Below are positions 10,999 through 20,800 of a DNA stretch of 20,800 nt, one piece after another. Position numbers and translations under genes: made by a program. Within the stretch, counting starts at the first letter, position 1. Every line of letters starts with the position of its first letter. The notes under the pieces were generated by a model. It did not search any database. It was not told the origin of the DNA and saw nothing but the letters and a program-made list of their open reading frames with translations. The stretch is from Sandaracinaceae bacterium (GTDB lineage Bacteria > Myxococcota_A > Polyangia > Polyangiales > Sandaracinaceae), in assembly GCA_044220955.1 (NCBI GenBank), contig JBGAQA010000109.1, positions 1-20,800 of the forward strand. The letters are read 5' to 3'.

Positions 10999-13900
10999 CT
11001 ACGGGGCGGGGACGTAGCGTGTGTGGCCGGCCGTCACCCGGGCGAACCGGAAGGACGTGCCGTCGCCACGGACGAAGGCGAGGTCGTGAATGGCCTCGGG
11101 CAGCGCGATCGCCACCGGCGCCTGGTCGAGGCGGCGCGTGACGTCCTGGCCGATGCGCACCTGCATCGGCTCGTCACCCGGCTCGAGCACGAGCAGCCCC
11201 TCTCCCGCGGCGACGGTGACGCCGAAGCCGGCGGCGATGCCGTCCTCGTCGCGGCCGTACCCGCTGAAGGCGCTCGAGGCGGGCGGGGCGCCCCCGCCCG
11301 GGTCGGACGCCCGCGCGGCGTCGACTCCGTCGGCGGCGGCACTCACCCCTGCGTCCGCGACGGCGAGGGTGCTCACCACGATGGTCGTCGGTGGCGCGGG
11401 CGCCTGCGCGGGGTGGGTGAGGCGCCACCCCGCGAACCCGAGCGCCGCGAGCGCCGCGAGGATGAACGTCCACTGGAAGCTCGAGAGGCCCGCGGCCGGC
11501 TCGGGCGCCGGCGCTGGCTTCGACGAGACCGGGGCCGCCGGGGCGGCGGGTCGCGCCGATCGCCTCGGCTCGGTCTTGTCGCGCTTGGCCTTGCCCGCAG
11601 GCGTGCTCGCGGGCTTGCTCGGGCTCGTCCGCGGGGGCTCGGACGGAGCCGCGCTCTGGGTCTGGGTCTTGCTCTCGCTCTGGGTCTGGGTCTTGCTCTC
11701 GCTCTCGCTCTCGCTCTCGCTCTCGCTCTCGCTCTCGCTCTCGCTCTCGCTCTCGCTCTCGCTCTCGCTCTCGCTCCCGAGCGGCGTCTCCTCCGACACG
11801 GGGGCTTCCGGCGGCAGCTCGCGCGGCGGCGCCTTGCTGGTCCGCACGGTCAGCGTGACGGGCTTCGGGGGAACCTCGAGGCCCTCACCCGCCGTCTTGC
11901 CCGCGATGTCGTCGAGGGTGTCGAGCTCGTCCTCGCCCGAGGGGTCGCTGTCGCGGCGGATCTCGACCACCGGCGGCTCGTCCGGCCCCGACGCCGGGGT
12001 GGCCGGATCTTCCCCGGCCTGCCGGAGCGTCTCGCGGACGATGTTGCCGGTCTGCTCTTCGTTCTTGGCCCAGCTCAGATCGAGCCCCGCCTCGCTCGGG
12101 GTCAGGCTCTGCAGGGCCGAGGGCTCGTGGACGCGCGGCGGCAGCAGGCTCGGACTGCGAACCGGGAGCGCGGTCTCGCCACGCTCGCGGCGCGCGGCGA
12201 CGATGCGATCGTCGTTGCTGTCGCCCAGGACGGCCGAGATCGCACCCTGCCGCGCCAGGTCGACGAGCACACGCTCGAGATCCTGGGGCGCGAACGTGCC
12301 GTCGACGACGAGCGAGCGTGGGCCGCGACCGTGGCGCAGCGCGTCCACGACCGCCGCGACCGTCGGCGGAGCAGCGCGCAGGATCGAGGCGAGCACGTCC
12401 TCGTCGAACTCGACGCGGTGCGCGAGCAAGAGCCCGCGGCCGGACACCGCATCGACCAAGCCGCCGAGCTCGTTCGCGGCGCGCGAGAGCAGCGTCTCCA
12501 GCGGCTCGCGCACGCTCGCGCGCACGTGCGTGTCGCTGTCCACGACGGTGAAGCGGCCCTCGGTGGCTCCGAGCAGCGCGATCACGACGCGCGGGCCGCG
12601 CGAGAACGACCCGTCGCTCGCAGTCCGCGTGATGTCCACGATGGCGCCGTGCGGCTCGTCGGGACGCTTCCGCAGCTCGACCTCGAAGAGGTTCCAGGCG
12701 TCTCGAACGATGATGCGCGCGTCGGGCCGCTGCTGGGCCGTCGTGGTCACGAGGGGCAGGATGCCGATCCGCTCGAGGCGTCCGCGCACGTCGCCGCCTG
12801 CCCGCAGGCGCTGCTCGAGGCGCGCGCGCGGACGGAGCACCTCGCGCACGGCGCCCAGGATCTGCGAGGCGCCGGCTTCCTTCCGCAGGTAGCCGCTGGC
12901 CCCCGCCGAGAGCTCGCGCATGCGCTGCAGGAAGTCCTCCTTCCACGAGAGCAGCACGACCGGCACGTCGGAGAGGACGGGATCGCGCTTGAGCTCGCGC
13001 GTCAGCGAGAACCCGTCGAGTCGGGGCATCAGGATGTCGGCGATGATGACGTCGGGACGCGAGCGGCGCGCGGCGGCGAGCGCCTCCTCTCCGTCGTGCG
13101 CCTCGGTGGGGATGGCGCCCGCCTCCTGGAGCAGGTTCGAGAAGAACCACACGACCGCAGGGTCGTCGTCGGCGATCAGGATCCGCCGATCCCGGAGGCT
13201 GACCTCCGCGCCCCCGTCGGTGGCCGCCTCGTCGTCGACCAGCGCCAGCGTGGCGGCCGCGCCCTCGCGCTCGCGGAAGTGAAGGCGCCCGCCGCTCCGG
13301 CTCGCGAGGTGCGCGCGAAGGCGACCGATCGCGCTCCAGGTCGCCGCGAGCACCTCGGTACCGTCCCCGATCGGGACGGAGAGATCGCGCCCGCGATCGA
13401 GCGAGTCGACCAGCCCCCGCCGGATCTCCTCGGCGATCTTCGCCGCGAGCTCGGCGACGGTGAGGTCGCCCGAGAGCGCGCTCGTCGAGACGCTCCCGTC
13501 CACGCCGGCCAGGCGCAGCACGCTGCGCTCGAGCGACTCGGTCGCGAGCGGCCTCGCGAGCACGTCCTCGCAGCCCAGCTCGCGCGCCGCGACCGCGTCG
13601 AGCTCCTCGCCCTCGGGCACCAGCGCGACGATCGGCACGAAGTCGGTCAGCGGGTCCTCCCGCAGGCGCCGGACGAAGTCGGAACCGCGCGCGAGCACGC
13701 CGCGATCGACGAGCACGACGTCGGGGGCGCTCGAGCGCGACAGGCGCAGGGCCTCCTCGGGGTCGGCCGCGCCGAGCACCTCGAAGCGCTCGCCAGCGAG
13801 GAGCGCCCGCACGCGCGCCTGCACCTCGGCGCCATCGCAGACCAGCACGCTGACGACGGGCGCGCCACGCAGGCTGGGCGGGGCCGGCACCGAGGCGCGC

Positions 13901-18737: not shown

Positions 18738-20048
18738 ATGAAGGTCTGCATGGTCGGCACCGGATACGTTGGCCTCGTGAGCGGGGCGGGCTTCGCCGAG
18801 ACCGGCACGTCCACGATCTGCGCCGACATCGACCGGACCAAGATCGAGAAGCTCGAGCGCGGGCAGATCCCGATCTTCGAGCCCGGGCTCGACGCGCTGG
18901 TCGCGCGGAACGTGGCGGCCGGGCGGCTCTCGTTCTCGACGGATGTCCCGGCCGCCATCGCCGCGGCCGACATCGTCTTCGTCGCGGTGGGCACGCCGAT
19001 GTCGCCGAACGGCGCAGCCGACCTGCAGTACGTGGACCGGGTCGCCGAGACGGTGCGCGACCACGCGAGCAAGGAGTGCGTCCTCGTGCTCAAGAGCACC
19101 GTGCCGGTCGGCACGAACGCGCGCGTGACGAAGATCGTGGCGGGCGCCAAGCACCGGATCCACGTCGTCTCCAACCCCGAATTCCTCAAGGAGGGCGACG
19201 CCATCAGCGACTTCCTCCGGCCGGACCGCATCGTGATCGGCGTCCCGCTCGGCGACGCGTTCGCGAAGGACCGGATGGCGCGCCTCTACCACCCGCTCTG
19301 CCTCGACGTGGACCGCGTGGTCTGGATGGACCCGCCGAGCGCCGAGCTCACGAAGTACGTGGCGAACACGATGCTGGCGATGCGCATCTCGTTCATGAAC
19401 GAGATCGCCGGTCTCTGCGACGCCGTCGGCGCGGACGTGCACCACGTGCGGCACGGCGTCGGCAGCGACGCGCGCATCGGCAGCAAGTTCCTCTACGCCG
19501 GCCCCGGCTACGGCGGCTCGTGCTTCCCGAAGGACGTCTCGGCGCTCGTGCACACGGCCCGCGAGCACGGCGTGGAGCTCGCGCTCGCCGCCGACACCGA
19601 CGCGGTGAACAAGAAGCAGAAGACGGTCCTGTTCCGGAAGCTGTCGAAGCACTTCGACGGATCGCTCGCGGGCAAGCGCGTCGCGGTGTGGGGCATCGCC
19701 TTCAAGCCGCGCACGGACGACCTGCGCGAGTCGCCCGCGCTCACGCTCATCGACGCGCTGCTCGAAGCGGGCGCGCACGTCGCGGCGCACGATCCGGAGG
19801 CGACCGCGAACGCGATGGAGATCTACGGCGACAAGGTCCGCTTCGTGGAGGACCCGTACGACGCCGCCAAGGGCGCCGAAGCGCTCGTGCTCGTCACCGA
19901 GTGGCGGCCCTACCAGAACCCGGATTTCGAGCGGCTGCGCACGCTGATGACGCGGCCCGTGCTGATCGACGGGCGCAACATCTGGGCGGGGTACGGGCTG
20001 CGCAAGCAGGGGTTCACGTACGAGGGGATCGGCGTGCAGGGGAGCTGA
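18738..20048 (+). CDS. ugd: UDP-glucose 6-dehydrogenase
   Basis: GTGYVGL, KSTVPVGT, SNPEFLKEG, AELTKYVAN, GYGGSCFPKD, AFKPRTDDLRESP; AGGAG RBS. Confidence 0.95.
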   Translation: MKVCMVGTGYVGLVSGAGFAETGTSTICADIDRTKIEKLERGQIPIFEPGLDALVARNVAAGRLSFSTDVPAAIAAADIVFVAVGTPMSPNGAADLQYVDRVAETVRDHASKECVLVLKSTVPVGTNARVTKIVAGAKHRIHVVSNPEFLKEGDAISDFLRPDRIVIGVPLGDAFAKDRMARLYHPLCLDVDRVVWMDPPSAELTKYVANTMLAMRISFMNEIAGLCDAVGADVHHVRHGVGSDARIGSKFLYAGPGYGGSCFPKDVSALVHTAREHGVELALAADTDAVNKKQKTVLFRKLSKHFDGSLAGKRVAVWGIAFKPRTDDLRESPALTLIDALLEAGAHVAAHDPEATANAMEIYGDKVRFVEDPYDAAKGAEALVLVTEWRPYQNPDFERLRTLMTRPVLIDGRNIWAGYGLRKQGFTYEGIGVQGS

Positions 20049-20052
20049 GGGG

Positions 20053-20130
20053 TCGCTCTCGACCTCGCTCTCGACCTCGCCCTCGCCCTCGCCCTCGCCC
20101 TCGCCCTCGCCCTCGCTCTCGCCCTCGCTC
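20053..20130. repeat. Degenerate intergenic hexamer tandem array, 13 units
   Basis: TCGCCC x7, TCGCTC x4 and TCGACC x2 in unbroken register, starting 4 nt after the ugd stop. Confidence 0.95.
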
Positions 20131-20135
20131 GGCTC

Positions 20136-20152
20136 TCCGGCCTTCGGCCGGA
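20136..20152. terminator. Small GC hairpin after the repeat
   Basis: TCCGGCC-TTC-GGCCGGA; no U-tract. Confidence 0.4.
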
Positions 20153-20184
20153 CTCGCCGCTTGGATGAGGACGAGAAATACGGT

Positions 20185-20381
20185 TGCCCGCTCGGGGTCG
20201 GGGAACGGTGCCGTCGTGCTCGCAGCCGTCAACCCCGAGCGCGTGCTCGCCATTCTCGCCGGAGCTCAGGAGGACGGGGAAGAACGTCTGGCTGCGGCTC
20301 CGAGTGGCTCCGCTCGCGGCGCTTCGCGCGGGTTGACGGCTGCTCCGCGCGACGGGGGTGGGCGAGTGCCCCGAGCGGGCA
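20185..20381 (+). other. ~197-nt rod-like fold-back element (candidate structured ncRNA or ssDNA promoter)
   Basis: Nested stems: 20185-20197/20369-20381 (13 bp perfect); 13x13 bubble; 20211-20219/20347-20355 (9 bp, one G-U); 20222-20235/20330-20343 (14 bp perfect); 20249-20254/20303-20308; 20260-20265/20297-20302; 20272-20276/20285-20289. Confidence 0.7.
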
Positions 20382-20397
20382 GAACGGAGAGCGGAAC

Positions 20398-20712
20398 ATG
20401 GCCTTGAACGTCTACAGAGATGCACTCCAGCTGGTTCGCGAGATGCGCGAGAACGTCACGAAGATCGCGCAGCACGACGCCGACCTCGGCAAGCAGCTCC
20501 GCCGGGCGCTGACGAGCATCCCGCTGAACATCGCGGAAGGAGAGTGGCAGCGAAACGGGAACGCCCGCGCGCGCTTCGGCACGGCGATGGGGAGCGCGAA
20601 CGAGGTACGCGCGATCCTCGAGACCGCAGACGCGATGGGCTACGTCGTGTCGGACGCGGGGCAGGTCGACGCGCTGGATCGGATCGCGCGGACCCTGCAC
20701 AAGCTCGTGTAG
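20398..20712 (+). CDS. Four-helix-bundle protein (23S rRNA IVP / bAvd-like family)
   Basis: LNVYRDAL...DLGKQLRRALTSIPLNIAEG...FGTAMGSANEVRAIL...GY signature; GGAGAG RBS before ATG 20398; 104 aa. Confidence 0.92.
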   Translation: MALNVYRDALQLVREMRENVTKIAQHDADLGKQLRRALTSIPLNIAEGEWQRNGNARARFGTAMGSANEVRAILETADAMGYVVSDAGQVDALDRIARTLHKLV

Positions 20713-20718
20713 GGCGGT

Positions 20719-20750
20719 CCGAGGCCCGCGGTTCGGGCCGCGGGCCTCGG
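20719..20750. terminator. 13-bp perfect hairpin between convergent genes (bidirectional terminator or REP-like)
   Basis: CCGAGGCCCGCGG (20719-20731), loop TTCGGG, CCGCGGGCCTCGG (20738-20750). Confidence 0.75.
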
Positions 20751-20757
20751 CGATCTC

Positions 20758-20800
20758 TCAGCGCGTCAGCTTCACCAGCACCCCGATGACGTGGTCGAGC
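20758..20800 (-). CDS. 3' end of a probable second four-helix-bundle protein (partial, runs off the window)
   Basis: The minus strand reads LDHVIGVLVKLTR-stop, which aligns with LDRIARTLHKLV-stop of the plus-strand gene. Only 13 codons are visible. Confidence 0.55.
   Translation of the reverse strand, partial: LDHVIGVLVKLTR

Follow-up and report, generated by a model that had tools for sequence, protein, structure and literature searches.

The fold-back at positions 20185-20381 is a real and conserved leader of a multi-copy gene for a PF05635 four-helix-bundle protein, and it recurs across a bacterial order. From its folding, its covariation and the promoter-like boxes that it carries, we think it probable that this element, in the form of its folded minus (template) DNA strand, is an Frpo-like single-stranded-DNA promoter for the gene behind it. 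The window, i.e. the whole stretch of 20,800 nucleotides analysed, ends at a contig end.

The nested helices of the fold-back are as the original prediction had placed them: they include a 13-bp helix (20185-20197/20369-20381), a 14-bp helix (20222-20235/20330-20343) and, closing the apical loop GGGAAGAA, GGACG/CGTCT. The structure, hereafter the rod, ends 16 nt before the ATG (20398) and leaves the ribosome-binding site free, with the Shine-Dalgarno (SD) GGAG on the plus strand at 20386-20389, recognized by sequence, outside the stem. Compared with 200 dinucleotide shuffles, it folds better on either strand and as either nucleic acid: z-scores are -5.86 (plus) and -4.96 (minus) for RNA and -4.98 (plus) and -4.68 (minus) for DNA, none of the 200 shuffles being as good. 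There is no match to a known Rfam family, either at the gathering thresholds for the whole window or at E<=1 for 20050-20800. The shape is not the pure rod that had been claimed, for a side hairpin, GCGC-TTC-GCGC at 20319-20329, makes a junction in it. In our hairpin loop analysis this side mini-hairpin presents a C(GAA)G triloop on the minus strand, as does a small perfect hairpin with a 7-bp stem at 20136-20152, variants of which occur in other type A copies. The rod is not unique in the genome: matches of 140-222 nt, or both arms, are present on five other contigs.

The Avd-like gene expected downstream is a type A four-helix-bundle gene (20398-20712, plus strand), which by profile and structure model encodes a PF05635/TIGR02436 protein of 104 aa with a pI of 8.2 and the Xcc0516/Avd fold. 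It scores above the curated cut-offs of both families (59.2 vs 33.8 bits and 56.6 vs 24 bits). The structure model is all-helical (pLDDT 94.9) and matches 2gsc with a TM of 0.78, 2rld with 0.84 and 4dwl with 0.73; its closest solved relative is Xcc0516. The same fold is thus seen in Avd of the diversity-generating retroelements (DGRs; 4dwl, 8ub7) and in the orphan pentamers Xcc0516 (2gsc) and BT_0352 (2rld), the match to DGR Avd being weak by E-value (0.15, at 7-8% identity). The mean pI of 25 such proteins is 9.1. A crude count of differences to the closest copy gives 21 synonymous and 14 non-synonymous changes and, at this level, shows purifying selection on the gene. Avd is described as a basic pentamer with non-specific binding to DNA and RNA (PMC5758913), PF05635 is said to resemble it (PMC10053308), and a further account mentions Avd only within DGRs (PMC7159879). 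PF05635/TIGR02436 is a very widespread family of uncharacterised function that is related to DGR Avd.

The gene and its leader are parts of a cassette, which is often a twin with two convergent genes. Its left boundary is a hexamer array, (CTCG-NN)n, of 12 units (20058-20129, plus strand) directly after the stop codon of a UDP-glucose dehydrogenase gene. Behind the four-helix-bundle gene a 13-bp hairpin without a U-tract (20719-20750), evident from the sequence and recurring in other copies, separates two convergent genes. The second of these is a type B gene on the minus strand, of which the C-terminal 13 codons and the stop are present before the contig end cuts it (20758-20800); the translation of this segment matches the end of the type B copies on contigs C282, C159, C247 and C36. 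Complete units on C282 and C247 have the order: array, rod A, gene A, hairpin, gene B on the opposite strand, rod B, array. The two arrays of a complete unit are direct repeats, and an array is found upstream of 38/44 conserved rod cores. The genome has 15 PF05635 matches. Summed read depth (X1) is 80-214 for the cassette and 11-18 for the contigs of the flanking gene, a figure that counts relatives and is no copy number. The contigs of one RNA run include none over the cassette, which speaks neither for nor against its transcription.

The cassette adjoins a chromosomal sugar-nucleotide operon that is conserved in congeners. At this site the array is absent in 4/4 congeners in which the 3' end of the ortholog is assembled: in G002 and G005 a convergent gene faces the upstream dehydrogenase gene at a distance of 50-110 bp, while G001 and G004 have other genes there, with neither array nor cassette. 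In the present genome the ortholog of the convergent gene of G002 and G005 ends contig C100, with its stop and an array. Because C100 ends in this way, the cassette likely sits between the dehydrogenase gene and that ortholog, if the contigs join as we infer. At the C282 site the cassette is found in 0/5 congeners, though synteny is not kept there. The 111 neighbouring ORFs that we scanned are mutually unrelated except for further PF05635 genes, and include two Uma2 genes and one HNH nuclease; among them there is no recurring neighbour of the cassettes and no reverse transcriptase (RT), relaxase, transfer-family or Y1 gene. Several further observations concern the arrays and cassettes. The genome G000 has 160 (CTCG-NN)n array matches, 148 after merging, and 40/160 touch contig ends; another array in the window, at 11650-11790, lies inside a response-regulator ORF as an SE repeat; and the array unit differs between lineages. 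A role of the arrays as Rho-loading sites was discarded, since among the 148 arrays those that come after stop codons do not prefer either strand (28 vs 22). Decayed cassettes (C36:15200-15480, C40, C53, C117, C241, C5) have lost by deletion the rod, the start of the gene or the greater part of its partner, and the deletion joint on C36 (20194 to 20422 in window terms) is present in two public runs.

Across the order, the protein is present in 118/301 genomes (E<=1e-12); tallies over the 301 genomes take in one unpublished genome (G132), on which no other claim rests. The conserved part of the rod is a core made up of an outer helix, a 2x3 internal loop and a 13-bp inner helix, and it is found in 57/112 leaders with at least 300 nt. 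For covariation, 2 mis-anchored and 4 nested cores were dropped, and 39 of the 42 distinct cores were aligned, 3 near-duplicates being left out. In these 39, 94.3% of the cells of the 24 core pairs do pair, and 19/24 pairs have changed on both sides; the covariation score is 0.642, as against 0.133 for shuffled and at most 0.151 for slid alignments. Part of this covariation is by construction, because the loop motif and a minimum of 7 inner pairs served to pick the cores, and the counts overstate independence because copies and genomes are related. The covariation supports the proposal that the structure is under selection. Other leaders are built differently. The twin cassettes at loci of the genus g20 (L007, L024 in G026, and others) carry hairpins that are short (~70 nt) and nearly perfect; these hairpins extend over the SD and are without mirrored -35/-10 boxes. 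A second four-helix-bundle clade, with an LDVY start (L002-L004, L008, L025), has hexamer runs at its flanks without the core motif. At L149 (G299:C1:9931100-9933000) a group II intron (RF02005, two matches) interrupts a rod copy, and the mirror arm is lost from view.

The core also holds a set of -35/-10 boxes which, like the cassette context, had no place in the original prediction. We scored them in 44 distinct cores, 7/57 having been dropped as mis-anchored, nested or shifted, and the -10 was not used for anchoring. On the antisense strand the 5' arm has a -35 box, TTGAC, at the inner helix (T43, T33, G39, A35 and C26 of 44). Exactly 16 nt after this hexamer comes nAnnnT, with its A in 43/44, its T in 42/44 and both in 42/44, as against 0-5 of 44 cores at 27 other offsets. 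The -35 box recurs on the sense 3' arm together with the spacer, here of 17 nt, and nAnnnT at a spacer of 16-18 is seen there in 0/44. Since the sense arm never carries a -10, duplex DNA is without a promoter of this type toward the gene. In the window, box profile and DNA fold place the -35 box TTGACG on the minus strand at 20227-20232, paired in the non-template arm; the 16-nt spacer (20211-20226, minus) contains the 2x3 internal loop that is conserved among the cores, in which GA faces GGA on the minus strand, together with a mismatch that never varies; and the -10 box CACCGT (20205-20210, minus), with A at -11 and T at -7, is unpaired in the predicted fold. The mirror copy of the -35 box and the 17-nt spacer occupies 20333-20355 of the plus strand, in the template arm, and in duplex DNA is a -35 without a -10 behind it. 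A 13x13 bubble separates the paired -35 region from the downstream 13-bp helix, whose non-template arm is 20185-20197 (minus); the template side of the bubble is 20356-20368 (plus), and sigma70 geometry would put a start near 20367-20369. Three of the seven plus-strand G-U pairs of the window copy correspond to A.C or C.A mismatches in the predicted bubble.

Pairing between the arms respects the position of the boxes. At -12 the arms match in 36/44 cores, with three pair types (15, 14 and 7), where 15.1 are expected, while from -11 to -7 matches are at chance (0, 8, 14, 4 and 1 vs 0.2, 10.1, 10.0, 7.5 and 1.0). A duplex of at least 7 bp resumes downstream in 21/44, as against 1.3 in shuffles, and the median bubble is 11 and 12 nt on its two sides. 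An open complex melts from -11, and by its sequence the core, paired to -12 and open from -11, would have the geometry of such a complex. Against a single-stranded-DNA promoter count the facts that unpaired -11 and -7 are expected from arm composition alone and that -12 is unpaired in the window copy. The mirrored layout is found in 61/91 leaders, including type B with a different spacer, and is reversed in 0/91; its absence in 30/91, among them the short perfect hairpins of g20, likewise counts against that reading. A genome-wide scan for the mirrored promoter gives 14 matches, 9 of them before a four-helix-bundle gene. From four other genomes 20 pattern matches were fetched and 19 parsed: of the 12 with a mirror arm 11 have a same-strand four-helix-bundle gene within 1.1 kb, as against 0/7 of those without. 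These counts support the surmise that the structure is cognate to this gene. The pattern TTGAC-N16-18-nAnnnT is enriched genome-wide over the codon background. The quoted consensus is TTGACA/TATAAT (bioRxiv 10.1101/2023.02.15.528439); a strict sigma70 scan of 19900-20800 returned no promoter and no terminator, its 9/12 threshold missing these GC-rich boxes. One short hairpin with a mirrored promoter-like layout, L153 (G299:C1:10492100-10494000), is not followed by a four-helix-bundle gene.

The -35/-10 boxes of the core would also form an ordinary outward duplex promoter, which counts against the single-stranded-DNA promoter: the -35/16/-10 arrangement is usable in duplex DNA, where it would make an antisense RNA toward the array, with the palindrome as an independent structure, either a cruciform or a protein-binding one. 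A CCGAGC-like word after the -10 fits this alternative, in that it persists even in copies where the arms are unpaired and pairing is impossible, a further point against the folded-strand reading. An outward promoter, however, leaves unexplained why complementarity of the mirror arm reaches exactly as far as -12 and returns 11-12 nt further on, and why the boxes keep a fixed position, at a median of 42 nt from the ATG. In twin cassettes, moreover, the array strand that its RNA reads would differ between the two ends, and no terminator is called; we regard it as rather unlikely.

As to which strand and which molecule folds, the small hairpin loops give evidence. We surveyed the last 260 nt of 91 leaders with a profile score of at least 75. 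Hairpins with 3-nt loops have C(GNA)G 116 times on the antisense and 7 times on the sense strand, where shuffles give 6.75 and 3.95. Read on the sense strand these are 116 C-TNC-G and 7 C-GNA-G, and since C-TNC-G is the complement of C(GNA)G, the loop that is stable in DNA lies on the antisense strand. The polarity is the same in 28/35 genomes, reversed in 1 and tied in 6, and is likewise seen (34 vs 3) in the 34 leaders that lack the core. In coding sequence the bias is milder (101 vs 39), at ~1/40 the rate, and regions after stops lean the opposite way (39 vs 67). The conserved internal loop of the antisense strand, GA opposite GCA or GGA, suits sheared G.A pairs. C(GNA)G is described as an unusually stable DNA loop that depends on its C-G closing pair (PMC3201870).

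These loops bear on a further alternative, close to the ncRNA suggested originally, namely that the sense strand of the rod acts as RNA, either a structured 5' leader or a small RNA, bound by its cognate protein in autoregulation or as an RNP. The sense fold is the more stable, antisense z-scores being lower in only 17/49 (RNA) and 19/49 (DNA) leaders; this counts against a minus-strand fold, although we find folding energy uninformative as a test of strand. The window copy has 7 G-U pairs in its plus fold and 0 in its minus fold, so that the described G-U pairs on the plus strand stand for this copy and, with the T.G spacer mismatch, count against minus-strand DNA. Across the family, at variable positions of the 42 cores, A.C exceeds G.T on the sense strand (22 vs 11). 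Whole-leader mismatches at first favoured the sense strand (G.T 69 vs A.C 29), but 54/69 of these G.T come from one repeated tandem-array context, and the remainder is G.T 15 vs A.C 29. We give mismatch spectra little weight, because strand-biased mutation can produce them too. An invariant spacer position (T.G 36, T.T 5 and T.C 1 on the sense strand of 42 cores, never T-A) fits an RNA wobble or a required mismatch equally, and the invariant T.G or T.T beside a repeated UC/UNC loop might mark a site for a protein. Among the 81 leaders that have an SD, the sense fold pairs it in 36; for an mRNA that begins within the 3' arm this pairing would be of no consequence. That Avd binds RNA as well as DNA without specificity (PMC5758913) also suits a sense RNA. 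RNA-type tetraloops are, however, nearly lacking, with C(UNCG)G 0/194 and GNRA 5/194 among the tetraloop hairpins of the 91 leaders. Within 300 nt, moreover, a promoter-like pattern is found on the antisense strand in 57 of the 91 leaders and on the sense strand in 9, even though selection on the gene is purifying, and a sense RNA leaves the antisense -35/-10 unexplained. The C(GNA)G polarity, the near absence of RNA-type tetraloops and the promoter boxes lead us to favour a DNA fold on the antisense strand, the plus-strand or ncRNA reading being not favoured and, in our estimate, unlikely.

The scattered distribution of the cassettes raises the alternative that the rod serves some non-autonomous mobile element (REP, MITE or an IS200-like single-strand end) as a signal for its end or origin, read by a nuclease or RT in trans, and that its promoter likeness is there for priming and not for expression of the gene. 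The multiple copies with unrelated neighbours, the empty orthologous sites in congeners, the decayed copies and the direct-repeat arrays at both ends all agree with such an element. No enzyme tracks with the cassette, however, and intact gene-free rods are rare (1/12); as a full account we hold it very unlikely, and it could coexist with a single-stranded-DNA promoter. Retro-mobility via a canonical RT was rejected because there is no linkage among the neighbours and no co-occurrence, in counts that take in many incomplete genomes: in the genus g20 the gene is in 34/55 genomes and an RT in 7/55, and in the family f17 an RT is in 29/31 and the gene in 0/31. Mobility via a Y1 transposase was rejected likewise, since none lies beside the cassette and the cassette-bearing genomes G007 and G124 (1-2 contigs), G008 and G026 have no PF01797 match at E<=1e-4. 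The genome itself has four RTs, three of the group II intron/maturase type and one retron-type, on other contigs or far off, and two RAYT-like genes elsewhere, none beside a cassette; the contigs holding these six genes are C290, C263, C167, C111, C77 and C231 (G000). A second gene-free repeat of ~80 nt occurs in G000 (C266:17739-17814, C12:6590-6665, C33:75039-75114 and others) and also at L123, an empty site. It has 69 blast and 48 nhmmer matches, a C(GCA)G triloop and GGA-rich internal loops, and a stop-codon triplet precedes its purine-rich form in 32/39 scored copies.

6S RNA is an open-promoter mimic that sequesters RNA polymerase, and an antisense RNA of similar size with a central bubble might act likewise, but with no Rfam match, base-specific -35/-10 boxes and GNA triloops that are DNA features, and nothing evident to transcribe the whole antisense strand, this alternative is barely credible.

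Among known systems the rod is nearest to the Frpo/ssi single-stranded-DNA promoters, on which Masai and Arai reportedly published in 1997. In these, known from the leading regions of F and ColIb-P9, a single strand is described as folding to present -10 and -35 boxes, and the promoter is off on conversion to duplex (PMC9849209). We liken the rod to them by layout and not by sequence homology, and do not class it as a member. Both are non-coding fold-backs directly upstream of a gene, with -35/-10 boxes that in Frpo/ssi are active, and in the rod would be active, once the template strand is single and folded, the rod being predicted to be off in duplex. The computed fold of the rod presents the boxes from a single strand, and they lie on the template strand of the gene without a duplex promoter toward it (61/91 vs 0/91; 0/44). 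The rod differs from Frpo/ssi in being chromosomal, multi-copy, GC-rich, tied to one gene family, accompanied by hexamer arrays and, in twin cassettes, present on both strands. Nor is it in a conjugative leading region: no oriT or relaxase is nearby, the 111 ORFs hold no relaxase or transfer family, and plasmid collections give no match. The -10 of the rod is predicted to be open in a bubble, whereas the Frpo boxes are described as mimicking duplex DNA (PMC9849209; bioRxiv 10.1101/2023.02.15.528439).

More distant comparisons are instructive as well. The filamentous-phage minus-strand origin and the hairpin promoters of coliphage N4 are folded single DNA strands read by RNA polymerase, and the N4 promoters use template-strand C(GNA)G hairpins. 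These are phage signals, whereas the rod has a host sigma70-type layout and would serve a chromosomal gene whose protein is without a phage match. Archaeal DGR target hairpins are reported to carry GRA triloops (PMC4372165); the cassette has an Avd-like protein but no linked DGR RT, the four RTs of the genome being those named above, and it is no DGR. ORF-bearing 23S rRNA intervening sequences share the protein family, a scattered placement and a stem nearby (PMC4990558; bioRxiv 10.1101/2024.02.27.582315). This identity was set aside, as there is no rRNA in the window and the ORF is outside the fold-back, starting 16 nt after the stem. A REP/REPIN-RAYT or IS200/IS605 element was set aside for want of a Y1 HUH transposase beside the cassette.

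Taken as a single-stranded-DNA promoter, the rod would work as follows: the unpaired minus strand folds into a predicted pre-melted sigma70-type promoter aimed at the gene, its 5' arm serving as non-template and its 3' arm as template. The duplex would extend up to -12, followed by an 11-13-nt bubble exposing A-11 and T-7 and then by the second duplex, and C(GNA)G mini-hairpins would stabilise the fold in DNA. Transcription would start ~30 nt before the ATG. Duplex DNA would keep the gene silent, and exposure of the strand would turn it on. Candidate routes of exposure are DNA entry, resection or gaps, and cruciform extrusion; no source of single-stranded DNA emerged from the plasmid and phage collections, neither of which gave a match, or from recurring neighbours. 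In twin cassettes each strand templates one gene, and either exposed strand would hence yield a protein. The basic, Avd-like protein likely binds the exposed single strand, which is the weakest step of the scheme. More tentatively, and with the balance against it, the cassette might be a minimal element with a single-stranded DNA phase and without a transposase or RT of its own, which leaves and re-enters the chromosome via the direct hexamer arrays. Through its two rods, one per strand, host RNA polymerase would be able to transcribe the gene of the Avd-like protein and also to prime second-strand synthesis, whichever strand is free.

We found no description of the leader or the cassette in the literature covered, mainly the main texts of open-access papers, with Frpo and the four-helix bundle taken as separate subjects. 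Single-stranded-DNA promoters are otherwise known mainly from conjugative plasmids, and a chromosomal counterpart that is conserved, multi-copy and provided with an open bubble of its own would give a gene a new means of responding to the physical state of its DNA. For PF05635/TIGR02436 this reading would provide a first simple assay, in that it makes predictions on the DNA state (single-stranded) in which the protein is produced, on the position of the mRNA start and on the bases that turn expression off, and the finding connects the family to the unexplained hexamer arrays of these genomes. Should the minimal-element reading be true, orphan PF05635 proteins would be DNA chaperones induced by single strands, and built-in sensors of single-stranded DNA would be scattered over chromosomes.
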